A stretch of DNA of 60,360 nucleotides, filler included. It is 5 parts of 5 records of this genome, joined end to end, with 100 filler letters (N's around TTAATTAATTAA, not from the genome) between each part and the next. Parts side by side here need not be neighbours in the genome. Positions count along the whole stretch, not along the records: positions 32,249 to 53,173 come from DRR723986_11238; 4 more parts are not named here. One strand, 5' to 3'. Positions 12,880 to 53,273 of the stretch are shown here, piece by piece; position 1 is the first letter of the stretch; every line of letters starts with the position of its first letter. The position numbers were made by a program, and so were the translations under genes. The notes below the pieces were generated by a model that was not told the origin of the DNA, searched no databases, and saw only the letters and a program-made list of their open reading frames with translations.

Positions 12880-12979
12880 NNNNNNNNNNNNNNNNNNNNN
12901 NNNNNNNNNNNNNNNNNNNNNNNTTAATTAATTAANNNNNNNNNNNNNNNNNNNNNNNNNNNNNNNNNNNNNNNNNNNN
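12880..12979. other. Artificial contig spacer
   Basis: N44-TTAATTAATTAA-N44, with stops in all six frames. Confidence 0.98.
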
Positions 12980-24156: not shown

Positions 24157-24256
24157 NNNNNNNNNNNNNNNNNNNNNNNNNNNNNNNNNNNNNNNNNNNN
24201 TTAATTAATTAANNNNNNNNNNNNNNNNNNNNNNNNNNNNNNNNNNNNNNNNNNNN
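24157..24256. other. Artificial contig spacer
   Basis: N44-TTAATTAATTAA-N44. Confidence 0.98.
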
Positions 24257-32148: not shown

Positions 32149-32248
32149 NNNNNNNNNNNNNNNNNNNNNNNNNNNNNNNNNNNNNNNNNNNNTTAATTAA
32201 TTAANNNNNNNNNNNNNNNNNNNNNNNNNNNNNNNNNNNNNNNNNNNN
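32149..32248. other. Artificial contig spacer
   Basis: N44-TTAATTAATTAA-N44. Confidence 0.98.
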
Positions 32249-36314: not shown

Positions 36315-36344
36315 AAAAAAAATGGCCCATCACTGGGATGGGCC
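36315..36344 (-). terminator. Rho-independent terminator after module 1
   Basis: Minus strand GGCCCATC-ccagt-GATGGGCC followed by a T-tract. Confidence 0.75.
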
Positions 36345-36502: not shown

Positions 36503-38188
36503 CTATTCACTTCGTCCAGACTTAACAAAACGGCGATTCACCTGCCCTTGTGTGCCGCGTAAAGTCAGAATGTACACTCCGGCAGTTTCACGCTGCAAAT
36601 TTAGAGTCAGGCTCTGTTGCCTCTGCGACTGCCCGCTGAAGACACGCCGTCCCATGATGTCTGTAATATGGATTTCCAGATTCTGCTTCGGCAAACCCCG
36701 TATTGTTAACTGGGAGCCAACTGGCTGGGGCGCAATGCTGATATTGTTTGATATCTGCTCGCTCATGGTTGGCTGGGCTTTGTCTTGGTCCGATGTTTCA
36801 AAGCCGTTTTTGGCTCCGGGAACCACTGTGCAGTTCGCAATATGTGCGCGATAATTGGCTCCGGATTTAGCTTCAAAACCAGGCCTGAGTGTAATCCGTG
36901 AGCCTGCTTGCATATCGATATCATCGAAGCTCCCTAGTTTGTAGTCGTTCTGAGCCACTATAAAGTCCGAAGCCCGGTAGTCTGCGACCGGAAAGACTTT
37001 GGGGTCGTGGAACTGTAGCTGTTCAACACAACAATCAGCAAGTTCAATATTCACCGGATTGTCGGCAGGGTACGCCAAAGCGTTTTGTTCGGTGAACTGT
37101 GAGTTCCCTTGAATATGTACCGTGCCGGACGAGTTTTTAACCGATCCACAATTGCCTACCCAAAGATACCAGTCATAGAATCCAGATTGTAGTACCGTAT
37201 TGTTGAATCCAAGTCCGGTCCAATAGATAAAAATCTCTTGAATGGAGTTAAAAGGGTCGTCATTCAGACCGTTAATATTAATCTCGGATTGTTGCCATAC
37301 AGTCGAATTACCAGCTCCTCTGATTTCCAGAGTATACCACTGGGCATTCTGGATTCTGACTTCCCAGGTTTCTAGCTGGCTGGGGTCAAAAGAGCCATCT
37401 ACTGAAGTATAAATGATGCCCGGATGTGTAACACAGGGGTGATCACAGACTCGGTAAATCTCAAAATCGTCGATCAACACATATGCTTTTTGGCAAAACG
37501 ACTGATTTTGTTTAGGACGCATTTCCAACGCGACCCTGTCGTAAGGATTTGACATATTAACAGTATTGGGTGACTTAAAGATTTTGGTAATGCGATGCCA
37601 GCCACCATTGACAGGATATTGATCCAGTTGATTTTCAATCACTAGGGAGCGTGTACCCGAACCTCCACTGCTATTCAATGAGCGGTACTTCGTGCCACAC
37701 CATGTGTCTGTGGCGTCACTTTCACCTTGGTAACTCAGCTGATTCTGCATGAAATGCAGTATAAGGCGACTGTCACTGAAATCTGTTGATGTTCCGTTGG
37801 GCCTCGTTGAAGGGAAGTAGACATGCACACTTAGAATGTACCAGATGTCACCTTCCAGAACGGGATTGCTGTTAACGTCCTGCTGAATTAATTCATGCTC
37901 TTGCATTCCGATATATCCGGAGCCGGAATGTGCATTAACATTTGCATGTTTAAATCCGTCACGAAACCAGTCAGCTGAATGCCAACTGTTACCGTCTGAA
38001 CTTGCTTGAAATCGATCACTCCAATCTTGAATGTTTTGAAAATTTGCGTAGGCATTGGGACCGGGGGCCCCGCTCTCAAATCCAGGGTTGTCAATTATAT
38101 TACTTTGAGTCAATGCCTGCATGCTCATCAGCAGCAGTAGAAGTGGGACCAAAGGCCACATGTATTTCTGTTTCATAGTGTTATCCAA
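36503..38188 (-). CDS. Secreted T9SS type A cargo protein (CBM-like + FlgD Ig-like + 3-coathanger-stack-like + CTD); module 1 gene B
   Basis: Signal peptide; NPGFESG; WTGLGFNNTVLQSGFY; AGSRITLRPGFEA; C-terminal IAPQPV...DIMGRRV...AGVYIL...RFVK. Start may be ATG 38176. Confidence 0.85.
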   Translation of the reverse strand: MDNTMKQKYMWPLVPLLLLLMSMQALTQSNIIDNPGFESGAPGPNAYANFQNIQDWSDRFQASSDGNSWHSADWFRDGFKHANVNAHSGSGYIGMQEHELIQQDVNSNPVLEGDIWYILSVHVYFPSTRPNGTSTDFSDSRLILHFMQNQLSYQGESDATDTWCGTKYRSLNSSGGSGTRSLVIENQLDQYPVNGGWHRITKIFKSPNTVNMSNPYDRVALEMRPKQNQSFCQKAYVLIDDFEIYRVCDHPCVTHPGIIYTSVDGSFDPSQLETWEVRIQNAQWYTLEIRGAGNSTVWQQSEININGLNDDPFNSIQEIFIYWTGLGFNNTVLQSGFYDWYLWVGNCGSVKNSSGTVHIQGNSQFTEQNALAYPADNPVNIELADCCVEQLQFHDPKVFPVADYRASDFIVAQNDYKLGSFDDIDMQAGSRITLRPGFEAKSGANYRAHIANCTVVPGAKNGFETSDQDKAQPTMSEQISNNISIAPQPVGSQLTIRGLPKQNLEIHITDIMGRRVFSGQSQRQQSLTLNLQRETAGVYILTLRGTQGQVNRRFVKSGRSE

Positions 38189-38298
38189 TGGAAAAGTTAA
38201 ATGTCACTTCAGAGACACTGTTGATTGCAGCCGGCCTGGCAAAACGACCGGATCCGCGTCTCTGTGGTCAATAAAATCAGGTACTTGTTTCCATCGGA

Positions 38299-39591
38299 TC
38301 ATCGTTGCGCACGCAGCGCATCAATCTCTTTCTGCTGCTGAATGACGTACAAGGTAAGCTCTTCGACTTTCTGCATGAGTGTTGTGTTCATCTCTGCGAC
38401 TCTTAAGCCCTTTTCTTCAACTTCCGCTGCTGAGGGCACATCCGGCAGGTGGCCGTTAGTGATAATAAACTCTTCTACTTCTGCGAGTGAGCGAAGTTCG
38501 TAGTCATCATCAAACACAAAGTCAGCCCAGCCAGATTCCACAACGATTTCCTTCGCACGAATCGCTCCATTCACCATCAGCCTGTACTCCGAGTTGTAGG
38601 TGCTGGTACCGATGCCAACCATGCTATTGTTATTCGCTGTAGGGTTGTGCACAACCAGGGCTTTTTCCCAGTTAACATTCACACCTTGAGAGCGGCTGTC
38701 GTTTGTCGACATATCCAGACTCATCTTGCCATTAAATCCATCATAGTTAAACCGCGCGGCCTGCCGACTATTGTGGAAGAACATCCCTGAATTGCCGAAA
38801 GTGCCTGGATAGGCATTCCAGGCCAGGGGAACGCCCGAAGCCGAACCACCCACATACAGGCGTGATAACCCGTTGGAACCCATTGCCAGAGCTTCGGAAT
38901 GGCAGATAGTTTGAAATTGCGACGGCAAGTTTGATATCTCCGTTAAGGCGCAATTTGAATTGAGGGCAATATCTGGACGTTCCCAAACCACACGCCCATT
39001 TTCATCCGCAATCAAAATGTCTCCAGGAGTTGCATCATCGCCGTTTAAGCGAATATTGCCAACTACATCAAGATCTGCCTGCGGGTCGTTTGTGCCGATG
39101 CCTAATTTCCCGCCTACATCAATTGCCAGGGGAAATCTGCGCGTATTATTAAATCCTTGAGTCACAATTTCAAAGAGGTTTTGCGGGTAGCCAATCCACG
39201 CATTTGGTGGGCAAATACTTTCCAGCCTGAAACCCACGTCTTCACAGTCGGCTTGAACATGCAGTTTGGCTTCCGGGAGAATGCTGGAAAACCAGTCACC
39301 AATTCCGACCTTACCATTACTGCGGATCACATCACTGCCATTGAGGCGCCATATTCCTATCGGTGAACCGTTTAAGCGATATTCACTTGTGTTCACGGCT
39401 CCGTCAATGTCTAAACGGTATTGTGGCGTGGAAGTCCCAATGCCAACATTGTCCGGACCGCTTCCGCTTGTCATCCCCAAGTGTGTGCCTGGATTGGGCA
39501 CGTAGATTTGCTGTGCTTGAACTTCATTAATAAAGGCTGCTCCAAAAGTCAGGAACCCAAGAGTCAGGTATAATTTTAGTGTCTGTCGCAT
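38299..39591 (-). CDS. Secreted tail-fibre/spike-like protein with VGIGT repeats and a C-terminal S74-chaperone-related coiled-coil domain; module 1 gene A
   Basis: Signal peptide; four (V/L)GIG repeats; WADFVF..YELRSLAEVE..NGHLPDVP..QKVEELTLY. Confidence 0.82.
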   Translation of the reverse strand: MRQTLKLYLTLGFLTFGAAFINEVQAQQIYVPNPGTHLGMTSGSGPDNVGIGTSTPQYRLDIDGAVNTSEYRLNGSPIGIWRLNGSDVIRSNGKVGIGDWFSSILPEAKLHVQADCEDVGFRLESICPPNAWIGYPQNLFEIVTQGFNNTRRFPLAIDVGGKLGIGTNDPQADLDVVGNIRLNGDDATPGDILIADENGRVVWERPDIALNSNCALTEISNLPSQFQTICHSEALAMGSNGLSRLYVGGSASGVPLAWNAYPGTFGNSGMFFHNSRQAARFNYDGFNGKMSLDMSTNDSRSQGVNVNWEKALVVHNPTANNNSMVGIGTSTYNSEYRLMVNGAIRAKEIVVESGWADFVFDDDYELRSLAEVEEFIITNGHLPDVPSAAEVEEKGLRVAEMNTTLMQKVEELTLYVIQQQKEIDALRAQR

Positions 39592-40007
39592 TGTTACACT
39601 CGCTGTAATAAGGTTAAATCAATCTGCTGCATTCCGTCAATTTGCAGGAGAGATAGCGCAAATTGTACCGGAGGGCACAGCAGTTCCTTTCGATCCTCCA
39701 GCGTACTGGTAGATCAATTATGGTTCTACAGATTAAACAGAGTTGCATCAGCCTGTCAGTGACAGACCTGCTTGTGCCTGTGCGTCAGGCATACGGTGTG
39801 TTGATACGTGAATATACTATTTGCATTCTCTGAATGCTTTCCCAATTGAATTTGACAAGACAATAGCAGGCGCAATCCTGTGAAGGAGTGCTGAATGGCG
39901 AATAATTACTTCGTACGACTTGTGCGCGTATCCGACATCTACGAGAGTGTTAAAACTGATGCCGATTGTTAACAAAAATGAACTGTACCTGGGTAGTTTG
40001 TACGGTT

Positions 40008-40054
40008 GCAATATAGTCAACTGCTTAAGCGAAGTAAATGGACTTGATATGTAC
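40008..40054 (-). promoter_or_regulatory. Module 1 promoter with 11-bp-spaced direct repeats
   Basis: Minus strand GTACAT-N5-GTCCAT overlapping TTTA, then N19, then TATATTGC. Confidence 0.6.
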
Positions 40055-40126
40055 TTATTGTCTATGTCATATTCCAGGTGCATACCTGAGTGAGAGTCCA
40101 TCAATTATACGTGAATGTCTTGTGTC

Positions 40127-41806
40127 TCAGATGCTTCGCAGGAATTCGTTCAGCTTTTGCTGGCGCCGCAGGTCCAACTTTTTACGGATGCGCCAGCGCG
40201 ACTTCAAAACGGCATTTTCAGAAATACTTAGCACCTCAGCCATCTCTTTAACACTTAAGTTTTCACGGCATAGGGTGCAAACTTTTACTTCTGAATCCGA
40301 TAGAGTTGTGTACAGGCTTCGCAGGCGGTCGTGAAAACCTGGGTATCTGGCGCGAATCTGGTTGAAGATATTTCGGCTGCTGCTTTCCTGCGCACCATTG
40401 TATCCGTTGCTCCTGGAAGTGATGGGATGCTTCACAGGCTCTGAATCTTGCGAGTTGAGTGCCTGGCGCCGTAGTTCGCGCATCAGCAATTCATTTTGGT
40501 CTTGCAGCTGCTGGATTTTGTCGCGGAGCGGTCCCTGGCGATATTCTTGTTCAGCGGCATAAATGCGCATTAGCACTGAGGGGCCCAGGACTTCGTTCTG
40601 CAACGATTGTTGTTCGGCGATCGTCTCCAGTGCGCGTTTGGGGTTGGGTCCATGCAAGTGCGCCTGAGTTTGAAGTACCAGCGCTTGCAGCTGGAAATGT
40701 TTATTGTCCAGTTGTGTTGCCAGCGAAATCAGGTCCTCCGCATAGTTCAAGGCCGATTCGGAGTCCTGCATTTTCAGGCAGATTTCACCGGCAGTAAACA
40801 ACAAAATAGCTTTTGTGAACTGGTTGCGCGGTGGTTTACACACCGCCAGGGCTTGTGTAATAGTATTTGCCGCAGCCTGCATTTGACCATGCCGTGCCAG
40901 GTGCTGCGCTTGTGTTTTTAACAATGTAGCGATCAGCGTAATCTGATTTTCTGTACGTGCCTTTGTTATCAGAGGATTAAACCGGGCTTCAAATTCGCTG
41001 CGATCTAACTCTGGGGCCTGCAAGATAAATTCTGTTGTATGGTAAAATTTGAGAATAGACCTAGCCTTGGTTTTCCGAACCATATTGCTCACATCCTGCC
41101 AAAGTGGCTTTAACACTTGCTGCAGTCCAAGGCGGAAACATATGTGAATAGCATCTATGCGAGTTCGAATACCAAAATTATGTGCACCAATGCTGTCTAT
41201 TCTGTCGTACGAATTCATTGAGCGGTAGTAGTAGCGGAATGCCAGATCAAACCGACCTAAGATGCGATAAGCACGTGCCAGATGAAATTCCTCATGTGCA
41301 CGCATTGACATGATGATGTCGCGTTCAGACACAGCTAACATTGTTGAATACGTCTCGAACAATTCTGAAGGAGTATGCTGAATGTTAACGCTATCAAAAA
41401 CGGCAACGTTTTGCGCGGCCAGGCGCAGCATTTCACTGGGGCGTGCCTGTTGATCCAGCATTGTAATAATATACGAGCGGATATTCACGGCAAACAGGGT
41501 GTCAGTACAAGTATCGAGCAAATGTTCGGCCTGTTGTAGCATAGCCGCAGTTCTTTTGGAGCGGCCCAGTCGTTCCAGGCAAATGGCTTCTATATAGAGT
41601 TTGAAGGCCTGCAAACATTGCCCGGCCGTTTGGCTTTGTTGGTGCCCGAACTTCTCAAGGTAAATATTGTGTTGCTGTAGTTCCGCCAGTGCTTCATCTG
41701 GCTCATAGATGGCAATATACATCGCCAGAATCAGGTGTTCTTGTATGGCTTTGGGCCCGGTAGCAAGGGCCAGGCGATTGCGTGCGTCCGTTCTACTGTA
41801 TATCAT
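40127..41806 (-). CDS. TPR/helical-repeat protein with C-terminal LuxR-type HTH (transcriptional regulator)
   Basis: Helical repeats and coiled coil, then YPGFHDRL...LSDSEVKVCTL...LSVKEMAEVLSISENAVLKSRWRIRKKL. Confidence 0.85.
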   Translation of the reverse strand: MIYSRTDARNRLALATGPKAIQEHLILAMYIAIYEPDEALAELQQHNIYLEKFGHQQSQTAGQCLQAFKLYIEAICLERLGRSKRTAAMLQQAEHLLDTCTDTLFAVNIRSYIITMLDQQARPSEMLRLAAQNVAVFDSVNIQHTPSELFETYSTMLAVSERDIIMSMRAHEEFHLARAYRILGRFDLAFRYYYRSMNSYDRIDSIGAHNFGIRTRIDAIHICFRLGLQQVLKPLWQDVSNMVRKTKARSILKFYHTTEFILQAPELDRSEFEARFNPLITKARTENQITLIATLLKTQAQHLARHGQMQAAANTITQALAVCKPPRNQFTKAILLFTAGEICLKMQDSESALNYAEDLISLATQLDNKHFQLQALVLQTQAHLHGPNPKRALETIAEQQSLQNEVLGPSVLMRIYAAEQEYRQGPLRDKIQQLQDQNELLMRELRRQALNSQDSEPVKHPITSRSNGYNGAQESSSRNIFNQIRARYPGFHDRLRSLYTTLSDSEVKVCTLCRENLSVKEMAEVLSISENAVLKSRWRIRKKLDLRRQQKLNEFLRSI

Positions 41807-42427
41807 TGTGTATTTTCCACCCTGAATCCCTAAGTGTACAGCCCGTTTACGAAGTACGTCCAGCCTAATTCAATTCATTCTTACAGCACTGCCATGCTTG
41901 TTCCGCACCAGATGACGTTGATAGCACCTTCTGTCCATGAGTTCGCTTCTGATAATCGACGGTCAGTTGTTTCCCGCGTGCAACAATCACCGACTTCAAC
42001 TATGTGCTCCTTAACAGAACAATTGAAGCACGCGTTACTCAATGCCATGTGTTTGTAACTATTCTTAGATATGGGGGTGGGACGCTAGCGAATCACTAAC
42101 AAGTTTAGAGTTGATGTTGCAAGTGCTGGGGTAATCACAACATCGGAACTGTTTCGCTTCATTGCTTTCTGATTGGTTGAACGACCACTACAATTTAAAG
42201 AACCATCCATAAACTGCAAGACAGTTTTTCCAAATTCGGAGAACTGGAATTGATGATTCTAACCAGTGTATTGCATATAGACCAAAATTGAGCTTGAATG
42301 TTACAGACCCGGCCCAGGTGCTTACATCGGGCAACCGTGTGCCTGGCTTCCAAGATTTTTGACTAAAAAGGATTGTTGAAAATCTGTGGCCGCCGGTTTC
42401 AGGATCAGTGCCAAACAAAAAGCTCAT

Positions 42428-42463
42428 AAAAAAGGCCCACCCCAAATCTTTGCAGGGGTGAGC
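42428..42463 (-). terminator. Rho-independent terminator after fbaB
   Basis: Minus strand GGCTCACCCC-loop-GGGGTGGGCC followed by TTTTTT. Confidence 0.7.
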
Positions 42464-42503
42464 CGATCATAGTCCCAAAACTTCAACACAAATGAATCGG
42501 AGC

Positions 42504-43553
42504 TTAGGCTACCGTTACATCGTCACACAGGTAAACATCCTGGATCAGTTGGAGCAACTTAACACCTTCATCCATCGGGCGCTGGAAAGCTTTGCGACCG
42601 GAAATCAGGCCCATTCCGCCCGCGCGTTTGTTAACTACTGCTGTAGCAACCGCATCCTCAAAGTCGTTGCTGCCCGATGCGCCACCACTGTTAATCAGAC
42701 CGATGCGTCCCATGTAACAGTTGGCCACCTGATAACGACACAGGTCAATCGGGTGATCGCTGCTCAGCTCCGAGTACATTTTTGGATGTGATTTGGCAAA
42801 CTTGAGCGCCGTAAAACCGCCGTTGTTTTCCGGAAGTTTTTGTTTAATAATATCCGCGTGGAGTGTTACGCCCAGGTGATTCGCCTGGCCCGTCAGGTCG
42901 GCCGCCACATGGTAATCTTTGTCTGCCTTAAATGCATTATTACGCGTGTAACACCAGAGAATCGTGGCCATGCCCAACTCGTGCGCATGTGCAAACGCAT
43001 GTGCGATGTCAACAATCTGGCGATTGCTCTCCGGCGATCCAAAATAGATTGTTGCGCCAACAGCCGCCGCACCCATTTCGTAAGCCTGGTCAATTGTGCC
43101 AAACAATTGCTGATCGTATTTGTTTGGATAGGTCATCAGCTCGTTGTGGTTAATTTTTACCACAAATGGGATGTGATGTGCGTATTTACGCGCTACCATT
43201 CCAAGGACGCCAAATGTTGAGGCGACAGCATTACAGCCACCTTCGATCGCCAACTTTACAATGTTTTCCGGATCAAAATAGGCCGGATTCGGTGCAAAAC
43301 TCGCACCTGCCGTGTGCTCAATCCCCTGATCCACCGGCAGAATCGAGACAAAACCACTCTTGCCCAGACGCCCGTGATTTAACAGGCGCTGCAGATTCCC
43401 CAGGACGCGGTTGTTGCGGTCCGAATGGGAAAATATTGCGTCGACACTCTCTGGCGACGGTAAGTGCAGCGCAGACCGGTCGATGGTCGTGCTACTGTGA
43501 TTAAGTAGATAGTCGGCGCGGTCGCCAAGGTATTCGCTGATGCGGTCGATCAT
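42504..43553 (-). CDS. fbaB: Class I fructose-bisphosphate aldolase (FbaB/DhnA type)
   Basis: [37 protein letters not shown]. Confidence 0.96.
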
Positions 43554-43626
43554 AATGCGGCCTCGGTAATTCGGTAATCCAGATATTCTAAAGGAAGGAT
43601 TGTTTGCATGTTTGAAATTGCAAGGT

Positions 43627-43634
43627 GCAATTTA
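43627..43634 (-). promoter_or_regulatory. Putative -7 box TAAATTGC for fbaB
   Basis: TAnnTTG variant about 74 nt upstream of the start. Confidence 0.35.
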
Positions 43635-43730
43635 CGAAATCTGCGCTTGTGCCGCCGGTGCAGAATCGGCAAGCTAAGTGCTAAAGCAGCTTCAGCCTGT
43701 GCATTTTTCCTAAAGAACCCAAAATTTACC

Positions 43731-43738
43731 TAACTTTG
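43731..43738 (+). promoter_or_regulatory. Putative -7 box TAACTTTG for the EEP gene
   Basis: Exact TAnnTTTG match about 90 nt upstream of ATG 43831. Confidence 0.45.
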
Positions 43739-43830
43739 GGGCGTGCGGAGATACACTTCCAGGTGTAAAAATTTGCCCGAAACCTGTACTGGGCCACAAC
43801 AGCCTGACAAGGGACGCAGCTACAACTACA

Positions 43831-44946
43831 ATGCAAACCGTCGTTACAATTCTCCTGACCCTACTTATCATTACGAACTTGCTGCCCCTTGTACGGCACT
43901 CGGCATGGTGGATTCGCGCATGTGATTTTCCGCGTTACCTGCTGTTGGGCCTGCTGATATTGTTTGGCGTAGCTCAAGTTCTTGTGGGTATGCCCGGAGG
44001 AATTGGCGGCGTGTTACTTGGTATCGGAATCACTGCTGCCGCATTGTACCAGCTCTTTACCCTGACCCGCTACTCGCGCCTGCGTACAGTGGAAGTGCCG
44101 TCCGCAGCGCCTGACTACGATCGCAGTCGTTCAGTTTCAATTTTGGTCGCCAACGTCCTGATGACTAATCGCGATGCAGAGCCACTCCTTAAACTTGTTA
44201 AACGCACACAACCGGATATCGTGCTTCTTTTGGAGCCCGACGAATGGTGGGGAAGTAAAACCGAAGTCCTGCAAAGTGATTATCAATGGCACATAGCAGA
44301 ATTGCGCGATAACCTATACGGCATTCAACTCTTTTCGCGTCTGGAGTTGGTCGCTCCGCGCATAGACCATATACTTAAACAAGATATTCCATCGCTTAAC
44401 ATGCAGGCCCGTTTGCCTTGTGGTGAGTTGGTTCGTCTGTATTGTTTACACCCGGAGCCGCCTTCACCAACTGAGGCTGATAGCTCGGCGCCGCGTGATG
44501 CTGAACTGTTAATCTGTGGTAAGCGCATCCGTGACGCACAGGAAAATTGCATTGTGGCGGGCGATCTTAACGATGTTGCCTGGTCACACTCAAATAACTT
44601 GTTTCAGGCTGTCAGTGGTCTGCTGGATCCGCGTAAAGGCCGGGGAATGTTTAACACATTTAATGCTTTTTACCCTTGGCTGCGTTGGCCGCTGGACCAT
44701 GTGTTTCATTCGCCAAAATTTAAACTTGTTTCCATGCAGCGCCACGAATTTATTGGCTCGGATCACTTCCCGTTTCAGGTTGAACTCGTACTGGACCCGG
44801 AAGGTGCAACTGCTGTAGAACCGCCGCACTTAGAGCGTGAAGAAGCTGTGGAAGCGGAAGCTGCGATTTCTGAGGGAGTCATTAAGGTGCAGACGGAAAA
44901 TTCTCAGGCGCCCGCCGAAAAGGCTAATCAAAGCCCTAAAAACTGA
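43831..44946 (+). CDS. Membrane-anchored endonuclease/exonuclease/phosphatase (EEP) family protein
   Basis: N-terminal TM segments; ANV, LLE, GDLND, LDHVF, GSDHFP motifs. Confidence 0.92.
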   Translation: MQTVVTILLTLLIITNLLPLVRHSAWWIRACDFPRYLLLGLLILFGVAQVLVGMPGGIGGVLLGIGITAAALYQLFTLTRYSRLRTVEVPSAAPDYDRSRSVSILVANVLMTNRDAEPLLKLVKRTQPDIVLLLEPDEWWGSKTEVLQSDYQWHIAELRDNLYGIQLFSRLELVAPRIDHILKQDIPSLNMQARLPCGELVRLYCLHPEPPSPTEADSSAPRDAELLICGKRIRDAQENCIVAGDLNDVAWSHSNNLFQAVSGLLDPRKGRGMFNTFNAFYPWLRWPLDHVFHSPKFKLVSMQRHEFIGSDHFPFQVELVLDPEGATAVEPPHLEREEAVEAEAAISEGVIKVQTENSQAPAEKANQSPKN

Positions 44947-45074
44947 GCGCTTCGCCCCTTCAAGGCAAGTGGCTTGCTGTTTCCTTTTGTTCGTTGTTTA
45001 ACCCAAATGCACAAGTCACGCAGTCTGCCACAAGCATTTAGTGCATTCAGCTGTAATTCCGGTTTAAAATAAGC

Positions 45075-45102
45075 GCGCCTCCTTCCGAGGGGAAGGAGGC
45101 GC
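45075..45102. terminator. Hairpin between convergent genes
   Basis: Perfect 12-bp stem GCGCCTCCTTCC-gagg-GGAAGGAGGCGC. Confidence 0.7.
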
Positions 45103-45194
45103 ACCAGTCGCCGACCAGTGACCTAAACCGGTCGTCTTCCTATCGTCAATTCACGCATTCGGCAGCGTATGCATGCCGCCGTCAAAATACCTGC

Positions 45195-48100
45195 TTAACG
45201 TTGAATCGTAAGCGGCACAGTTGTGGCGCGCCTGCCATCCAAAATCAGGCTTGCCAAATGCGCACCTGCAGGCAGGCTGCTCACGTCAATGCTCAGTGTC
45301 TGTTTGCCGGCACCCAGCATTCCAGCCTCAATTCGTTTAAGGCGCCGCCCCTTAACATCCACAATGTTAAACGCCACGTTCTGTGCGCGTTCCAACTCAA
45401 ATGTCATGTTAAGATCCGATCCCACCGGATTGGGGAACAAAGTCAATGCAAGCGCCTCTTCGTCAATTTGTACCGAGGTAGTTGTCCGCACACAGCAGCT
45501 TATGTACAGTTTGGCCCAATCAACACTTGTATCGTCCTGGATAAAAAAGTCAAGTGTGCCGTCCTGTAGTGCCGGTAAAACCGAACTTGTTAAGCCCGGT
45601 GTCAGATTGCCAAGGTCCAGCGAAATGACTGTCGCCGGCTGGCCTGACCAATAAACACCTGCCAGCGTGCCAATACCGATGCTGTAAATACTGGTACCGT
45701 CCTGCATTATCACGAGCCTGTCGTTGTAACTCAGACCACCATTTGTGCGCACCTGCAGCTCCAGCCTGGCTGCAACCACACAGCATTCCGGCCCCAGGCA
45801 ATCCGTGAAACTATGTGCGAAAAAGCGATTCTGCAGCGGATCGTCAAATCCCACCAGCGGATAGACAGAAAGCCAGCTTTGTAAATCGGCAGACGGGGCC
45901 GCCGGTGCAAAGTCCGGTCCAGGACCAAAGCCGTCATCTTCTCCAGCTGTGACTGAATGCTCTGAGACATTTGTGCATGTGCTATAGTTGCCAAAGTCCA
46001 GGTCTTCCACAGCCTGATTGCTGTTGAGGGTCGGTCTGTAGCTACCTGTGGGCGGTGCCGTCTGCACCCAACCCGACTGCTGGACTTCATACACCAGCCA
46101 CGGAGCGTACTCCAGGTCCTCGAATTTATACGTACCGTCATCAGCCGTAAAAGTTGATAGAACGACGTTGTTTTCCTGATTGACAATCACAATCTCCCAG
46201 CCACCCAGGCCAGTGTCTCCATCATCCTGGGCGCCATTGCAGTCTTTATCCCAATACTTTGTGCCGCAAATGCTGCCGCTTTCAATTGTGCAGAATAGCG
46301 TCAATTCCTGCTCACAGTCGATCCAGGTCTGCGAAACCGGATCAAAGTACTCAATCAAGAGGGTATGACTCGTCTGGGAGCCACTGATGCAGTAGGTACC
46401 CAGGTCTACAAGACCAATGCTTAGAGTCGTGTTAACAGTTAAGGTGCCACCAGTGATCACGTAATTGTGTGATCCGTCACCAGCATAACTAATTGATGCC
46501 GTAGAGCTAAGTGGAGTCAGCCGTATTGCACTGAATTCGCAGTCATATTCCTCTGCCACTTCGATTCCCAGGTCAAAACAGCAGGGGCCGATGGCTGGGT
46601 TATTTTGATAAACTGGCTGCAAGTGTTCGCAGCAGTCGGTAGGATCATCACAGCACAGGTCTACCCGCAAAACTGCGTAGTCAACACTCGTATCATCCTG
46701 AATGAAGAAATCGAGTGTGCCGTCCATCATTGCCGGGAGAACACTTGTTACCTGGTTGAGTGGCAGGTTGCCCAGGTCAATGTCAATTGTCACAGGGCCT
46801 GCGTTGCTCCAGGGATAACCCACCAGAGTTGAAATTCGAATGCTGTAGATGGCAACACCGTCCTGTACAATTACAAATGAATCGTTGGAACTTGCCCCCG
46901 GCAGTGTTTTTATGCGCAGGCTCAACGTTGCACCAACCAGGCAGCAGTTCTCAGGGATGAAGTCAACAAAGGAGTGCGCAAAAAAGCGGTTGGATACCGT
47001 GGCGTCAAAACCCGTTAGAATTCTGCCGTCAAGGTAATCGCTGAGTTCCGGTGTCAGGAAGGTGCCGGGCGCGTCCGGTGTTGCAGCAAACTCGTCCTTG
47101 GTTCCCGCACGCAAATTGTTGCGCGTCGGCCGCTCACAGGCTCGGTGATTGCCAAACTGAACCTGCGCGCTAGGGTCACTGTTACTTAACACAACCGTGT
47201 GCGAGGCCGTCGCGGGCGCAGTTTGTACCCAGCCGTTTTGTTGTGTTTCGCGCACCCGCCAGGTAGCAAATGCCAGGTCCGTAAAACAGAAACTGCCGTC
47301 AGGTGCCGTCGTTCTTGTTTGGCTCACATTATTGGCGGTGTTAACGATCGTAATTTCCCAATTGCGCAGTCCCGGTTCACCCTCGTCACGCATGCCGTTG
47401 CAGTTAAGGTCGTCGTACTTCACACCACAAATTTCGCCGCTCTCAATTGCGCAATACAGTTCCAGCTCCTGATTGCAGGAGACCCAGGTTTCGGTAATAG
47501 GATCAAAGTATTCAAAATCTACAGTGTAGTTGGCCTCCGAGCCCTGGATACACCAGGTGCCCAACTCAATGATTCCGGCGTGCACCTGCGTGAAGACGCT
47601 CACCTGACCATTTGCAATGCTGTACTCCAGATTGTCAGGTCCAAAGTAGTCTATCTGATTAACATTTCCGTTTATCGTCATACGCACGGCATCAAGCTGA
47701 CATGCATAACCCTCATCCACGCGCAGCCCAATCTGGAAACAACAGGGGCCCAGGTCCAGGTCGTTAGAGTAAAATGGGCTGATGTGTTCGCAGCAGTCTT
47801 CCGGGGCAGTACAGCAAAGCTCCACTTCAAGATCAACCCAGTCGACGCTTGTGTCATCCTGGATGAAAAAGTCGAGCGTGCCGTCCATCATGGCAGGCAG
47901 GACGCTGGTTAACTGGCGCGGAGGCAGATTTCCCAAATCGAGGACTACTGTGGAGGTACCGTTGCCTGTCCATGCATTACCCGCTACATCGCCTGGCGAA
48001 ATGCCATAAATCAATTCGCCGTTCTGCACAAAATAGAGCGCATCATTGCTACCTAAACCGTCAAGTGATCTAAAGGAAATTGTTAACCTGGCACCTACCA

Positions 48101-49100
48101 CACAACAGCCAGGCCGTAAATAATCTGTGAAGGAATGCGCAAAGAAGCGGTTGGCTGATGTTTCATCAAATCCTGTTAAGATAGATCCCGACAAACGCTC
48201 GCGCAACTCGGGAGATGGTGCCGCCGGTGTCGCCTCAGGTCTATCCGAGAAGTTATCTTTTGAACCCGCAGAGAGGCTAATCCGCTGAGGCTCTTCGCAA
48301 ATGCGTACGTTGCCGAAATCGTAGGTCCGCAGAGAGATATTGGACTGTAGTACAACTTCGTAGCGGCCTTGCGTTGGCGCGGTCTGTGCCCACCCAGCTT
48401 GCTGATCCTCGTAGATAAACCATGGTGCAAACTTCAGGTTGTCGAAAACATAACGGCCGTCAGAGTCGGTGACAGCGGTCTTGCGTGTATTACTTGGCTT
48501 GTGAAACGCCGTCATTGTCCAATTTGGCATACCCGGCTCACCGGGATCGCGCACACCATTACAGTTCCTGTCATTATACTTTATCCCGGAGATACTGCCG
48601 AGCTGAATCGGGAAGTATGGGACATCGTTGGGACCGGGAAACCTGATAAATTCACCGTTTGGATCGGTCTGGTAGGAGAGTGCCATCTCAAATGACGCTG
48701 CTGGAAGCCGAACCTCCACCAGTCCCAGGTCGTGTTCAACGCCGCTGCTGAACTGGCCCGTCCAGGTAATTGAGTTGCCGTCGCTCTCGGTTTTAAATTC
48801 ATTGGCATCAAGCATGCTCAGTTCCAGACGCTCACCGATGAATTCTATGCGAATGCGTGCATATTGACAAGGGGAATTCTGATTAATGTCAAGAAACAGG
48901 CGGAAGGCATTATCGTTCACCCTCGTGGCATTCTCGTGCCTCAAAGTCAGTGATTCCGCACACTCATCCGCAGCGGCCGGAAGTGTAAGTGCTGTTAACA
49001 TCAGACCGCACAACATTGCAATAAGGCAGTTTTTTTTCAGGATTGCCACTGGACAATCTCCACTTGAACAAAGTCTCAATTGAAACATGTTTAACCTCAA
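45195..49100 (-). CDS. Large Cys-rich T9SS cargo protein with three SdrD-B-like domains, each followed by a repeated unknown domain
   Basis: 3x G.I.G.KY.D..CNG..D.GE.G...W; 3x NRFFAHSF...GTLDFFIQDDTSVD; C-terminal LFPNPV...DVKGRR...LPAG CTD; start uncertain. Confidence 0.88.
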   Translation of the reverse strand: MRLNMFQLRLCSSGDCPVAILKKNCLIAMLCGLMLTALTLPAAADECAESLTLRHENATRVNDNAFRLFLDINQNSPCQYARIRIEFIGERLELSMLDANEFKTESDGNSITWTGQFSSGVEHDLGLVEVRLPAASFEMALSYQTDPNGEFIRFPGPNDVPYFPIQLGSISGIKYNDRNCNGVRDPGEPGMPNWTMTAFHKPSNTRKTAVTDSDGRYVFDNLKFAPWFIYEDQQAGWAQTAPTQGRYEVVLQSNISLRTYDFGNVRICEEPQRISLSAGSKDNFSDRPEATPAAPSPELRERLSGSILTGFDETSANRFFAHSFTDYLRPGCCVVGARLTISFRSLDGLGSNDALYFVQNGELIYGISPGDVAGNAWTGNGTSTVVLDLGNLPPRQLTSVLPAMMDGTLDFFIQDDTSVDWVDLEVELCCTAPEDCCEHISPFYSNDLDLGPCCFQIGLRVDEGYACQLDAVRMTINGNVNQIDYFGPDNLEYSIANGQVSVFTQVHAGIIELGTWCIQGSEANYTVDFEYFDPITETWVSCNQELELYCAIESGEICGVKYDDLNCNGMRDEGEPGLRNWEITIVNTANNVSQTRTTAPDGSFCFTDLAFATWRVRETQQNGWVQTAPATASHTVVLSNSDPSAQVQFGNHRACERPTRNNLRAGTKDEFAATPDAPGTFLTPELSDYLDGRILTGFDATVSNRFFAHSFVDFIPENCCLVGATLSLRIKTLPGASSNDSFVIVQDGVAIYSIRISTLVGYPWSNAGPVTIDIDLGNLPLNQVTSVLPAMMDGTLDFFIQDDTSVDYAVLRVDLCCDDPTDCCEHLQPVYQNNPAIGPCCFDLGIEVAEEYDCEFSAIRLTPLSSTASISYAGDGSHNYVITGGTLTVNTTLSIGLVDLGTYCISGSQTSHTLLIEYFDPVSQTWIDCEQELTLFCTIESGSICGTKYWDKDCNGAQDDGDTGLGGWEIVIVNQENNVVLSTFTADDGTYKFEDLEYAPWLVYEVQQSGWVQTAPPTGSYRPTLNSNQAVEDLDFGNYSTCTNVSEHSVTAGEDDGFGPGPDFAPAAPSADLQSWLSVYPLVGFDDPLQNRFFAHSFTDCLGPECCVVAARLELQVRTNGGLSYNDRLVIMQDGTSIYSIGIGTLAGVYWSGQPATVISLDLGNLTPGLTSSVLPALQDGTLDFFIQDDTSVDWAKLYISCCVRTTTSVQIDEEALALTLFPNPVGSDLNMTFELERAQNVAFNIVDVKGRRLKRIEAGMLGAGKQTLSIDVSSLPAGAHLASLILDGRRATTVPLTIQR

Positions 49101-49587
49101 AATCGTGTGAAGGCAGCCCGGGTGCCGTAGTTAAAATATAGATAAAGGCTGCCTGGCCGTTGTGTGTACAACAGCTTAATGCGCATGTGAAGAATTGATT
49201 CATCTTGTTTTGTATGCTGGGGCTACAAAACCTTCAGTCTGGTGTGAAAATGCTACACTCAGTCTGGTATCGAAGTCTGTTTTGGGATGTATCCCGCAGG
49301 AACCTGCCCTTGCATTAAATGAATTCGCTACAACTGTGAATTTGAATTCATCCCGTGACTCTGCTTGGTGCATGTGAGGCAGGAGTCAAAGCAGGGAGCG
49401 GAAAAAGTAGTGAGCAGAACCGCAGCCGACAGTGATATGAAAACATGTGATTCTAAGGCAGTCTCCAGCCATAGTGAGTTGACTGAATTCTTACTCCGGA
49501 ATCATTTAATCCAATTCCTGAACTTATTTGTGAATCGCTAATTGATTGTCAAAGTAGATAAATAATATCTTAGCTGCAAACTAAAAT

Positions 49588-49628
49588 GCGAACAGCCGCA
49601 TTTCCGGCCGGGAAATACAGCTGTTCGC
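49588..49628. terminator. Imperfect hairpin after module 2
   Basis: GCGAACAGC...GCTGTTCGC stem with inner ATTTCC/GGAAAT. Confidence 0.5.
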
Positions 49629-49696
49629 GAGCAAAAAATCATTTGTAAGCTTACGCTCTCATCAGAAGGCACATAATTTCTGACTACGCACTTGGC

Positions 49697-51370
49697 TTAT
49701 CGCTTAACAAATGACAGTGTTTGCATTTTATTGTTTTGCAGAATTGTTAACAAGTACACTCCAGGTGACCAGCTCGTCAGGTCTATGTTAAATGCACCCG
49801 ATGGTTCAACTTGTTCGGCGTACATTGTTCGGCCCATTATATCTGTAATACTCAATTCATAGCGCTCACGCACCAGACCAGTTATCACAATATTGTTGGC
49901 CGCCGGGTTTGGATTGACTTGTATGTCCAGCGGCAAGCCCGTTGCAGATGGAGCTACCGGATCTTCTACAGTGCCGCTATCACCCTGCTTGGCCCCTGGG
50001 ACCACGGTACATGCGGCAATACTGGCGCGAAAATCAGAGTTGGCAACCGCAAAACCGTGTTTCAGCGTGATTTTATTCCCGGCCTGGAACTCAATGTCTT
50101 TGCCGGAAAAGATGCGGTATTCCTGCTCTGCCGTTATGAAGTCACTCGCCAGGTATGTCGCCTCCGTGTTCAGCGGAAACGCACGCAACTCATGATGTTC
50201 TAAACAACAGTCCTTGTAATCGAAGTCCTGAATGAAATATACAGGGCTTATAGGCGGGAACTCATCCACCTGGGTGGGTGGATTCTTCATATCTACGGCC
50301 ACGTCTCTTTCGTCCGTCTCGGAACAATTGCCAAACTTAAGGTTAACGTGATATTGTCCATCACCCAAGGCATTACCATCGTTATCACGCCCGTTCCATG
50401 TGCCTGTGTAGTGCGCTCTCCCAAACACGGGATGGTTGTGCAGGCCTTGCGGGCTAAATTCTTCCTGTGTCCAAACGATGTCTCCATTTACATCTTCTTC
50501 TCTAATTTCCATTCGGTAGAGTGTGGCATTAAACACAATGAACTCGTAGTAGTTGGGCGGTGATTGTGCCGGATCAAAAGCTGAGGGCAGGGTAAATGTT
50601 AACTCGCCAAATTCTGGCGCACAGGGATGATCGCAGAACTTGATAATCTCAACATCATCTATCAGTACGTAGGCCCCGCTGCATTCCGGGTTTTCACCGC
50701 GCTGCCGGACTTCAATGGCAGTCCAATCAAATTTGTTAAACGAACCGCCTCTGTCAGGTGACTCTACCACAGCGGTGACGCGGTGCCAGCCATCTGCTAC
50801 GGGGAATTGTGTTAGGTCACCTTCTATCAGTCTTGTTTTGATTGACTGTCCGCCGCTGACATCCAGAGTGCGATAATTCTCTTCACAGAATTCTCCGCCG
50901 GCGGTATTAAGGGCCTTGTAGTGCATCTTTTCGCGCCCAAAGTGTATCACAATTTCGGCATCCGTAAATTCAGTGTCGTCGCCGTCAGGCGTCGTTGCAG
51001 CCAACTGAATCCACATACTCACCAGGTAAAACTCAAAGTCTTCATACTCTTCATTGTTGTGCAACTTCTGCTGCATCAACTCAAATTGTTGCATGCCAAC
51101 GTAACCGCTGCCATTTCTTGCGTCGATATTGTCATGTTTAAAGCCGCCGTCAAACCAGTCGCAGGAGTGCCATGAGTTACCATCGTTTGTGGTAAAAAAC
51201 TCATTAGACCATTCACTGATATCGCCGAACTGTCCATGATTTGTTGGATCTGGGCTGCCATTCTCAAAGCCGGCATTACTGAACAGATTGCCGGCCACCA
51301 GTAGGGGCGTATGTATGCACAGGCATACACATCCCACAATTACAGGCAGCAATCCCTTAAATATTTGCAT
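49697..51370 (-). CDS. Secreted T9SS type A cargo protein, paralog of 36503-38188; module 2 gene B
   Basis: NAGFENG, DGNSWHS.DWF, AYVLIDD.EI...CDHPC, TWNGRDNDGN, AGNKITLKHGF, VNPNPA...SPGVYLL...FVK. Confidence 0.85.
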   Translation of the reverse strand: MQIFKGLLPVIVGCVCLCIHTPLLVAGNLFSNAGFENGSPDPTNHGQFGDISEWSNEFFTTNDGNSWHSCDWFDGGFKHDNIDARNGSGYVGMQQFELMQQKLHNNEEYEDFEFYLVSMWIQLAATTPDGDDTEFTDAEIVIHFGREKMHYKALNTAGGEFCEENYRTLDVSGGQSIKTRLIEGDLTQFPVADGWHRVTAVVESPDRGGSFNKFDWTAIEVRQRGENPECSGAYVLIDDVEIIKFCDHPCAPEFGELTFTLPSAFDPAQSPPNYYEFIVFNATLYRMEIREEDVNGDIVWTQEEFSPQGLHNHPVFGRAHYTGTWNGRDNDGNALGDGQYHVNLKFGNCSETDERDVAVDMKNPPTQVDEFPPISPVYFIQDFDYKDCCLEHHELRAFPLNTEATYLASDFITAEQEYRIFSGKDIEFQAGNKITLKHGFAVANSDFRASIAACTVVPGAKQGDSGTVEDPVAPSATGLPLDIQVNPNPAANNIVITGLVRERYELSITDIMGRTMYAEQVEPSGAFNIDLTSWSPGVYLLTILQNNKMQTLSFVKR

Positions 51371-51404
51371 GATAATTTTCCTGTTTAATAAATAGGGTTG
51401 CTGC

Positions 51405-52688
51405 TTAGCGCTGTTGTTTAAGTGCGTTGATCTCTTTTTGCTGCTGAATTACGTACAAGGTCAGCTCTTCGATCTTGAGCATCAGACGCGCATTCATCTC
51501 ACCGACTTTAAGGCCTTGACCTTCGACTTCGCTGCCGGCGGGGATGTCGGGCAGGTGTTTGTTTTCCTGGATGAATTTTTCAACTTCTTCAAGCGGGCGC
51601 AGTTCGTAGTCATCTTCAAAAACAAAGTCACACCACTGTGTTTCAACCACAATTTCCTCGGCGCGAATTGAGCCACAAACCATCAACTTAAAGTTTGCGT
51701 CAAACGCATCTGTACCTATGCCCACGGCACCGGCATTGTGCATGACTAAAACATTCTCCCAGTTAACCTGGCTGCCAAGGTTGACCGTTTGGTCGGGATC
51801 CGACATTGCAAACTTCAGGGCACCGGCACCCGGGCTGTAACTGATTTTCGCGGCTTGTTTGGAAGCTGTGGAGTAGCGCAGGCCCGTGTTTGGCGCCGCT
51901 ACAGGGTAAGCGTTCCAGGCGATTGGCACATCGGATGTCCGGCCACCAACGTACAGGCGGTTGGTTCCATTAGCACCCAGTTCGACGGCGTCACTGTGAC
52001 AAATCGGCGCGTATTGGATCGGCAGATCGGTGACAGGCTGCGGGCCACAGCCCGTGTTTAACAAGTCAAAAGGATCAGCCCAGACGGAATTGCCGTTAAC
52101 ATCAGCTGAGAGCACGTAGCCATTTTGTGCGCTGGCGGAGTTAAGTTTAATATCGCCATTGAAGTCAATATCGGCCTGCGGGTCATCCGTTCCAATACCA
52201 ACTTGTCCAGTGCGGTCAATCGTGAGTGCATCCACGCTATTACCCGCATTGTCCATAGTAGTTACTTCTACCAGATTGCTGACGGTAACTGGGCCCTGTG
52301 TTAATTCGCACTGATTTTCGACTTTAAAGCCGACTTCGGTGCATTCTGCCAGGACATGCAGGTTGGCGCTCGGGAATAGCGATCCCTCGGATGTCTGCCC
52401 AATTCCCACATTGCCGGCGGCATAAAAAATGTGACTGCCATATGGTTTCCAAATGCCAATTGGTAGACCGTTTTGGCGGATTTGTGAAGCGTTGATTGTT
52501 CCGTTAATATCCAGCTCGTAGGCCGGAGTGTTAGTGTTTATGCCAAAGTGTGTTGGTCCACCACTGAGTGAAGACTGCGCGTAGGTGGCTACGTTATCGA
52601 CAAATAGTTGTGCATCTGCAGTTGTTTGTGTTAAAGTAAACACAAACGCAATAGTTGCGAATAAACGAAAAGTGTGACTCGTTAACAT
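51405..52688 (-). CDS. Secreted tail-fibre/spike-like protein, paralog of 38299-39591; module 2 gene A
   Basis: Signal peptide from ATG 52688; VGIG repeats; WCDFVF..YELRPLEEVE..HLPDIP..LKIEELTLY. Confidence 0.82.
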   Translation of the reverse strand: MLTSHTFRLFATIAFVFTLTQTTADAQLFVDNVATYAQSSLSGGPTHFGINTNTPAYELDINGTINASQIRQNGLPIGIWKPYGSHIFYAAGNVGIGQTSEGSLFPSANLHVLAECTEVGFKVENQCELTQGPVTVSNLVEVTTMDNAGNSVDALTIDRTGQVGIGTDDPQADIDFNGDIKLNSASAQNGYVLSADVNGNSVWADPFDLLNTGCGPQPVTDLPIQYAPICHSDAVELGANGTNRLYVGGRTSDVPIAWNAYPVAAPNTGLRYSTASKQAAKISYSPGAGALKFAMSDPDQTVNLGSQVNWENVLVMHNAGAVGIGTDAFDANFKLMVCGSIRAEEIVVETQWCDFVFEDDYELRPLEEVEKFIQENKHLPDIPAGSEVEGQGLKVGEMNARLMLKIEELTLYVIQQQKEINALKQQR

Positions 52689-53061
52689 CTGAGACTCCAA
52701 TGTGTTGGAATTGTTAAGTAATAGGTGCTCTGTCAGCGCTGGAATTACGCTGATGACTGTATTTGATTGTAGATGATTTGGCGCTGCCAGTGTCGTCGTG
52801 CAGTCGGCTGAAATTGGGGGGGACAGCACGGCGATGTAGTCAGGTCTCCACCGGTTTACGGCAGATGATGCTAGTGATGTTGTTAAACATTCAATTAATT
52901 CATCTTGGCTGCAGATGAGTATGCGTTATTGTCAAAAAATGAACCAGGTGTGCCAACGCGCGCAGATGTTGGCGATATCAGTTATTGATATTTTTGAGTA
53001 TCCGCAAAATACTCGCAGAAGTAGAATGACCAGGTGCAACTCCTGTAAAACTGATATGCAG

Positions 53062-53092: not shown

Positions 53093-53173
53093 TGGACAGT
53101 TTATGGACAATGGGTAATGGACAATGGACAGCGGATGGACAGCGGATGGACAGTGGATGGACAGTGGATGGAC
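53092..53173. repeat. ATGGAC direct-repeat array, mostly 11-bp period
   Basis: ATGGAC at 53092, 53103, 53117, 53124, 53135, 53146, 53157, 53168; runs into the contig end. Confidence 0.9.
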
Positions 53174-53273
53174 NNNNNNNNNNNNNNNNNNNNNNNNNNN
53201 NNNNNNNNNNNNNNNNNTTAATTAATTAANNNNNNNNNNNNNNNNNNNNNNNNNNNNNNNNNNNNNNNNNNNN
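53174..53273. other. Artificial contig spacer
   Basis: N44-TTAATTAATTAA-N44. Confidence 0.98.

Follow-up and report, generated by a model that had tools for sequence, protein, structure and literature searches.

Why should a gene for a phage-fibre-like protein be followed by a gene for a cargo protein of type IX secretion (the T9SS), and why should this pair occur twice on one short piece of DNA? The question is raised by a stretch of 60,360 nt that was joined from five pieces and is called the window below. Its fourth piece (32249-53173, 20.9 kb, GC content 0.49) carries two modules, each consisting of a fibre gene, A, and a cargo gene, B. Because both lie on this piece, the spacing between the modules is real. 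We consider it about an even chance that the two genes of each module form an operon for an adhesin of two parts on the cell surface. The homology of the proteins, their domain content, their secretion signals and their conserved gene order were observed directly; from these we infer the trimeric state of A, the surface location and a contact between A and B. The features of the modules, including the conserved C-terminal helical domain of A (about 95 residues, here named ACT) and a jelly roll in B that resembles carbohydrate-binding modules (CBM), are as follows.

38299-39591, minus strand: A1, secreted fibre protein of 430 amino acid residues (aa) with a signal peptide, four capping-loop repeats and ACT
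38302-38589, minus strand: ACT domain of A1 (residues 335-430), helical and conserved
36503-38188, minus strand: B1, T9SS cargo, 561 aa from the TTG at 38188 or 557 aa from the ATG at 38176
37442-38104, minus strand: CBM-like jelly roll of B1 in the predicted model (about residues 25-245 of the 557-aa form)
36827-36979, minus strand: GCX_COOH domain of B1 (NF045639, 43.8 bits, cut-off 26)
36521-36736, minus strand: T9SS type A sorting domain of B1 (TIGR04183, 34.6 bits, cut-off 23; PF18962, 31.8 bits, cut-off 27)
36324-36344, minus strand: terminator-like hairpin after B1 (8-bp stem, -15.5 kcal/mol, z -2.8, then U8), about 160 nt past the stop codon
51405-52688, minus strand: A2, 427 aa, paralogue of A1; the form with a signal peptide starts at 52688, and the open frame extends to a GTG at 52829
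51408-51695, minus strand: ACT domain of A2 (about residues 332-427), with 65% identity to the A1 domain
49697-51370, minus strand: B2, 557 aa, paralogue of B1, carrying GCX_COOH (residues 408-455, 38.8 bits) and the T9SS type A sorting domain (residues 486-557; TIGR04183, 38.8 bits; PF18962, 34.6 bits)
49588-49628, minus strand: terminator-like hairpin after B2 (18-bp stem, -31.4 kcal/mol, z -5.6, U-rich tail), 69 nt past the stop codon

The initial annotation had described two diverged, colinear pairs in the same order and on the same strand, each followed by a hairpin, and this description holds. Open reading frames (ORFs) are present at all four positions, a hairpin was found behind each B gene, and every motif that had been listed as shared is visible in the alignments of A1 with A2 and of B1 with B2. 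Over their full length A1 and A2 share 47% identity (202 of 431 aligned positions, E 3e-134); the figure for B1 and B2 is 35% (196 of 555 positions, E 4e-124). Searching the whole window with the four proteins (tblastn) returned two copies, and no more, of A and of B. At the DNA level the likeness of the copies is limited to 258 nt (73%) within the coding region of the C-terminal domain of A. The whole pair was thus duplicated long ago, and the copies have diverged since. Among the B proteins, B1 and B2 are closest to each other, and A1 and A2 are mutual nearest relatives in a tree of ACT domains (support 88/99). The gap between A and B measures 34 nt in the second pair and 110-122 nt in the first, depending on the start of B1; the ATG at 38176, which yields the 557-aa form with a signal peptide, is the likelier start. 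The hairpin between A1 and B1 is not significant (z -1.5), terminator-like sites across the region do not exceed those in shuffled sequences (22 versus 18.2 +/- 4.8), and neither does the outcome of a sigma-70 scan of the region. The Bacteroidota-type -7 promoter motif occurs at one site upstream of A2 and at none upstream of A1 and is uninformative.

The pairing of A with B is conserved well beyond this window. Loci were collected from public genomes with the bait pattern G[ML]xxYELIQQ, derived from an alignment of 16 B sequences; it matched 59 stretches, 15 of which were confirmed as relatives. ACT is encoded upstream of B on the same strand in all 15 loci (tblastn), which supports the pair as a conserved unit; the initial annotation had inferred a functional unit. 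With the two pairs of the window the coupling amounts to 17 of 17. According to the gene maps, fibre gene and B are adjacent or overlapping in 10 of the 15 loci, and one gene separates the two in the other five (L004, L007, L010, L011 and L014). Elsewhere in the approximately 150 kb of these loci, two further ACT matches were found, one of them a short fragment in L015. The fibres share ACT and differ widely in their N-terminal parts, and the B homologues, like B1 and B2, match the NCBIfam models NF045639 and TIGR04183. L004 has a second fibre, located before another T9SS protein, and three T9SS proteins with GCX_COOH follow the fibre in L011. In the ACT tree, which is poorly resolved, eight B-adjacent fibres form one group with two fibres, from Emticicia and Aureispira plasmids, that have other cargo behind them (support 93/80), apart from the fibres of tandem arrays described below; relatedness alone can produce such a clustering of cargo-adjacent fibres.

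Small proteins of 190-250 aa with a signal peptide accompany the pair in 11 of the 15 loci (L001, L002, L004-L010, L014 and L015), one or two per locus, located beside B or between fibre and B (e.g. L001:7704-8423 and L007:1454-2188). Hydrophobic residues alternate along their sequences, and their C-termini are aromatic. They have neither a Pfam family nor a relative in the PDB; weak matches to the PorV/PorQ family were seen in two of 14 (best E 5e-4). As a third component of the modules described here such a protein was rejected, since none is encoded in the window.

What kind of protein is A? A1 and A2 begin with what read as signal peptides, and both proteins carry four cysteines at conserved positions and four VGIG/FGIN repeats. 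In A1 the capping-loop repeats of the form VGIGT..P...L.V.G lie at residues 49, 95, 163 and 325. Neither protein matches a Pfam or NCBIfam family, and A1 as a single sequence has no match among PDB sequences. A profile of 63 family members was needed to reveal relatives of known structure, namely the Bdellovibrio fibres Bd2133 (E 5e-23), Bd1334 (4e-11), Bd3182 (2e-10) and Bd2439 (2e-8), whose PDB chains comprise the C-terminal parts only. In a Foldseek search of the PDB, ranks 1 to 10 for the A1 model are solved Bdellovibrio fibres; the template modelling (TM) scores by query of 0.10-0.18 are low, which is to be expected when a fibre is modelled as a monomer. By profile and model, A is hence a phage-fibre-like protein with a shaft homologous to these fibres, and it most likely folds as a trimeric, beta-helical shaft. 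The fibre-like character, the signal peptide and the lack of a recognisable type A sorting domain had been stated in the initial annotation and need no revision. In Pfam and NCBIfam scans no T9SS sorting domain was found in A1 or A2, and none of 120 listed medium-length ACT matches and none of 33 long forms combines it with ACT.

The Bdellovibrio proteins are mosaic adhesive trimers (MATs), surface-displayed trimeric fibres of which B. bacteriovorus has 21 paralogues (Caulton et al. 2024, PMC10769870). According to the accessible text of that paper, they share the capping-loop motif V-G-G/N-pi-x-x-P-x-x-x-L, which is matched by the repeat VGIGT..P...L of A, and consist of a conserved, beta-rich N-terminal domain of about 130 aa behind the signal peptide and C-terminal tips that vary, with S74 at the end of 13 of 21. 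Besides the profile matches to four solved MAT fibres and the top fold matches, A resembles the MATs described there in being encoded by chromosomal, non-prophage genes, in its signal peptide and phage-like beta-helical shaft, in having one conserved and one variable end, and in occurring as many paralogues per genome. The polarity is reversed, however. A is conserved at its C-terminal, helical ACT domain and variable at its N-terminus, whereas MATs as described in that text show the opposite arrangement. Behind the signal peptide the consensus of the A family shows no conservation, which argues against a MAT-type N-terminal domain. In addition, S74 was not found in A, in contrast to some of the MAT tips reported, and a T9SS-exported, lectin-like partner gene such as B is not mentioned for MATs in the portion of the paper at hand.

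ACT is the confident part of the A1 model (predicted local distance difference test, pLDDT, 90-97), with helices at residues 369-379, 388-394 and 398-429. The word-indexed search with A identified at least 3448 ACT-bearing proteins at E<=1e-3 among 7998 candidates scored. Most of them have only the last approximately 100 residues in common, at 55-68% identity (55-70% across the matches overall), and differ in their N-terminal parts. The organism names attached to long forms also include Ignavibacteria, Ca. Uabimicrobium and Lentimicrobium. Adhesin-type passenger modules occur in the 63 family members, i.e. YadA_head in eight, SprB repeats in five and T4 gp36 in four. The stored A homologue P0002 belongs to unnamed clusters in which a minority of members carries PF26696, labelled PTL_trimer, a name that was not found in the literature searched.

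The C-terminus of A had also been regarded as related to S74, and this part of the proposal was not supported. Peptidase_S74 (PF13884) has no match in A1 or A2 at E<=1 and is not among the 25 listed of 50 families found in the 63 members; the position of SDxxxK in S74 proteins reads G.I.A.E in the family consensus. Phage S74 fibres and spikes such as the K1F endosialidase and the L-shaped fibre of T5 are similar to A in design, a variable trimeric fibre with a conserved C-terminal module, and in fold, with 169 viral models, many of them S74 tail-fibre proteins, matching at E<=1e-3. They differ from A in their match to the S74 model and in their phage context; A had no match in 50,697 phage records (tblastn). 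YadA-type trimeric autotransporters are likewise trimeric fibre adhesins and share the YadA_head repeats with members of the A family. Unlike them, A1 and A2 show neither a beta-barrel anchor domain nor a YadA match, and the C-terminus is helical and soluble in the model of A1.

Protein B is a T9SS cargo with a head of its own. The type A sorting domain and the 3-coathanger domain GCX_COOH, both of which had been noted at the outset, score above the cut-offs in B1 and in B2. The first approximately 250 residues match no Pfam or NCBIfam family. The model of B1 (pLDDT 83) begins with a jelly roll, continues with a beta-sandwich (about residues 255-355) and a small stack of beta-strands, and ends in the sorting domain. 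In fold searches the first of these parts is similar to CBM16, CBM70, CBM4, CBM22 and MAM domains (CBM16 2zew/2zey, TM by target 0.64-0.66; CBM70 4d0q, 0.59; CBM4 3k4z, E 1.6e-8). The CBM-like domain suspected earlier agrees with the predicted fold of the N-terminal domain; by sequence, no CBM family in Pfam or NCBIfam matches B at E<=1. For a domain like FlgD-Ig the outcome is mixed, as PF13860 matches B2 over 23 residues (322-344) at 20.3 bits, below the cut-off of 27, and does not match B1. The family-conserved motifs N..FE, HS.DW, ELIQQ and IDD are all located inside the jelly roll, and N30, F33, W52, H66, Q99, Y149, D236 and several cysteines are invariant in an alignment of 40 B sequences. 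B1 as a single sequence has no match among PDB sequences, and a word-indexed homologue search with its residues 25-400 returned nothing. An exhaustive profile search succeeded. The cluster representatives number 210 for E<=1e-3, 98 for 1e-10 and 8 for 1e-30, and almost every one is 545-620 aa long and of one layout.

Type A cargo of the T9SS ends attached to the cell surface. As judged from its domains and model, B would be a lectin-like cargo, and its sorting domain of type A predicts that it ends there as well. B agrees with GCX_COOH cargo of type A in matching both NCBIfam models. It departs from the cargo described under these models in its N-terminal domain of 250 aa, which belongs to no family, and in the obligatory fibre gene upstream, which is not part of the models. 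Another comparison is offered by T9SS cargo of type B, which is encoded next to a cognate outer-membrane partner of the PorP/SprF type in the accessible part of the source (PMC9143113). There too, a cargo gene has a dedicated neighbour for surface attachment, and the small signal-peptide proteins beside B in 11 of the 15 related loci, absent from the window, add to the likeness; in contrast to the arrangement in that source, the sorting domain of B is of type A and the partner A is a soluble fibre rather than a beta-barrel.

If each module codes for a two-part adhesin, A would be exported by Sec, and its variable N-terminal and middle part would provide specificity. ACT would be the constant end, serving as a module for trimerisation and registration, for docking, or for both. 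The type A sorting domain of B would be removed and B would then be anchored to the outer face of the cell, where it would display its CBM-like lectin domain on a stalk of Ig-like and GCX_COOH domains. There it may work with the fibre, as its tether or cap or as a second glycan-binding contact; a tether could hold the fibre through the constant ACT end. A joint action at the surface is suggested by the B-family genes, which were found only directly behind an ACT fibre gene (allowing for the five loci with one gene in between). The diverged duplicate pairs fit a diversified recognition of targets.

Several observations weigh against such a joint function. The 15 loci baited with B all stem from metagenome-assembled genomes of Bacteroidota, and a single peptide pattern samples part of the B family. 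Identities of ACT and B correlate weakly over 13 pairs (Pearson 0.28), with 125 of 5000 permutations reaching a value as high. The A1 model, from a 63-row alignment, is of moderate quality (mean pLDDT 70) and monomeric, and beyond the Sec signal Pfam and NCBIfam scans recognised no outer-membrane route in A. Above all, the ACT family is far larger than the B family, at least 3448 proteins compared with 210 representatives at E<=1e-3, and ACT fibres occur without B. A search of a plasmid collection with A matched 11 records, on which the fibre genes were mapped with the ACT model. No B homologue accompanies the 15 tandem ACT fibres in 28 kb of the Persicobacter plasmid CP012864.1 (L024, 1-28441), the nine in 24 kb of the Fulvitalea plasmid pFA7 (L016), the five on the plasmid of the fusobacterium Haliovirga abyssi (L018), directly downstream of a cluster of gspF, gspG, pseudopilin and secretin genes like those of type II secretion systems, or the single fibre beside polysaccharide export genes on a plasmid of the alphaproteobacterium Leisingera (L017). 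The arrays of 15 and nine recall the 21 MAT paralogues counted in the accessible text on Bdellovibrio.

Among five single fibres on Bacteroidota plasmids, for which the next gene was checked, three are followed by cargo of other kinds. It is a protein with GCX_COOH and a T9SS sorting domain in Aureispira, a small protein with a T9SS sorting domain in Amniculibacterium (L023) and, in Emticicia, an M4 peptidase that matches a sorting domain weakly (E 0.0025); the other two are followed by hypothetical genes of no relation. In Amniculibacterium, the record annotation additionally lists a gene with an RHS repeat-associated core domain after the fibre and the small T9SS gene (L023, 2490-6909). B depends on an ACT fibre, and ACT fibres do not depend on B. 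The initial description of B as a dedicated partner does not extend to all such fibres, in view of the size of the fibre family, the tandem arrays and the other T9SS cargo.

The same data can be read in other ways. A and B may be co-expressed and physically independent, the operon delivering a fibre adhesin and a lectin together, e.g. to one substrate or prey, without contact between them. This explanation, a real if minor possibility in our view, agrees with the operon structure, the secretion signals on both proteins, the ACT fibres that lack B, the weak co-divergence, and the variety of T9SS cargo behind ACT genes (among them the M4 peptidase, a 151-aa protein and FG-GAP proteins). It accounts less well for the 17 of 17 cases in which B was never seen away from an ACT gene, and for a fixed order and strand with gaps of few bases or overlaps, which is tighter than co-regulation alone usually needs. 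B could instead serve the biogenesis of the fibre, carrying A across the outer membrane as a hitch-hiker on the T9SS, or acting as a fibre-specific assembly or maturation factor like the phage tail-fibre chaperones encoded just after the fibre gene. The position of B directly downstream of A corresponds to that of such chaperones, and a helper would suit a protein with a Sec signal and no recognisable outer-membrane route, given that 0 of 153 ACT proteins examined have a T9SS sorting domain of their own. However, most ACT fibres are without B, and some belong to phyla without a known T9SS, so that a route independent of B must exist. Moreover, B is built as displayed cargo, with a lectin-like head, an Ig-like stalk and a sorting domain, and not as a chaperone. 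We know of no precedent for hitch-hiking on the T9SS, although no dedicated search was made, and regard a role of B in biogenesis as improbable.

Least probable by far, with a very small chance, is that the modules are left over from a prophage, a tailocin or an extracellular contractile injection system, in which A was the tail fibre and B an accessory protein. Weak PHROGs matches of A to tail fibres (phrog_9942, 33 bits) and the resemblance of its fold to viral S74 fibre proteins would fit this origin. Virion proteins, though, normally have neither a Sec signal peptide nor a T9SS sorting domain, and A and B carry the former and B the latter. Families of phage, sheath, tube or baseplate proteins were not found among the scanned ORFs of the window or the 24 locus neighbours scanned, and A has no match in the phage records. 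The remark that no phage genes are nearby thus stands for the fourth piece.

With these alternatives in mind, the two-part adhesin remains our reading of the modules. It may be extended to ACT fibres and the T9SS cargo behind them, often with GCX_COOH, in general. They would then form a widespread, undescribed two-component system for surface display in Bacteroidota, in which a protein anchored by the T9SS binds, via ACT, to a MAT-like trimeric fibre exported by Sec, or carries it out, the B family being one cargo class among several and the whole a cell-contact apparatus that can diversify, comparable to the fibres by which Bdellovibrio recognises prey. We hold this wider view to be doubtful.

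The surroundings of the modules are defined by the limits of the fourth piece. The five pieces of the window are divided by four identical spacers of the form N44-TTAATTAATTAA-N44, and therefore anything beyond 32249 or 53173 is no physical neighbour of the modules. The spacers and the other features concerned are the following.

12880-12979, 24157-24256, 32149-32248 and 53174-53273: artificial spacers (44 N, TTAATTAATTAA, 44 N)
40127-41806, minus strand: TPR and LuxR/GerE-type regulator (Pfam and NCBIfam matches), directly upstream of A1 on the same strand
45195-49100, minus strand: third T9SS type A cargo protein, 1301 aa, between the modules and behind the terminator of B2

The TPR and LuxR/GerE protein is a possible candidate for the regulator of the first module. 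Sensors or regulators adjoin the pair in 4 of the 15 related loci (L001, L003, L011 and L013), where they combine Reg_prop/Y_Y_Y with a histidine kinase or LytTR output, and on the Emticicia plasmid a gene of the LuxR type follows the fibre and peptidase genes. In the 1301-aa cargo a unit of about 370 aa is repeated three times, and every unit has an SdrD_B or carboxypeptidase-regulatory-like domain and cysteine-rich segments. The remaining genes of the piece code for an ABC exporter, a TPR/LuxR-type regulator (the protein listed above), a class I aldolase and a protein of the endonuclease/exonuclease/phosphatase family. Upstream of A2 the tandem repeat ATGGACAGCGG (11 nt, 4.5 copies, 53124-53173) runs to the end of the piece and probably explains why the assembly stopped there.

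The other pieces may have another origin. Pieces 1 and 2 (1-24156) are strongly unlike pieces 3 to 5 (24257-60360) in tetranucleotide use; their GC content is 0.59-0.62 and their tetranucleotide correlation to piece 4 is 0.22-0.38. A CTP synthase on piece 1 (949-2577) is identical, letter for letter, to a Marinobacter protein, and piece 4 encodes T9SS cargo. The source bin may for these reasons mix two organisms. The genes for a pilus ATPase, TniB, HutU and enolase lie outside piece 4, are not neighbours of the modules and may come from the other organism. The TniB-like AAA protein of piece 2 (22041-23051, minus strand; PF05621, E 5e-6) hints at a Tn7-like element, unrelated to the A-B pair.

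The modules are composed of parts of known kinds, a MAT-like shaft, a T9SS type A cargo and GCX_COOH. For the ACT domain, the N-terminal family of B and the strict coupling of ACT with B no description was found in the literature searched, in which the term mosaic adhesive trimer appears only in connection with Bdellovibrio, its relatives or bacterial predation; the supplement of the MAT paper on other bacteria (PMC10769870) might list related fibres. Phage-fibre-like adhesins for the bacteria's own surface have so far been characterised in Bdellovibrio. The fibres described here point to a very large, MAT-related family of opposite polarity in Bacteroidota and beyond, with a conserved C-terminal and a variable N-terminal part, and one branch of this family is strictly coupled to a lectin-like protein exported by the T9SS. 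How MAT fibres are retained on the cell is left open in the accessible text of the MAT paper. If A and B touch, they would represent a new way for T9SS cargo to organise surface fibres and would give a handle on how such fibres stay on the cell.

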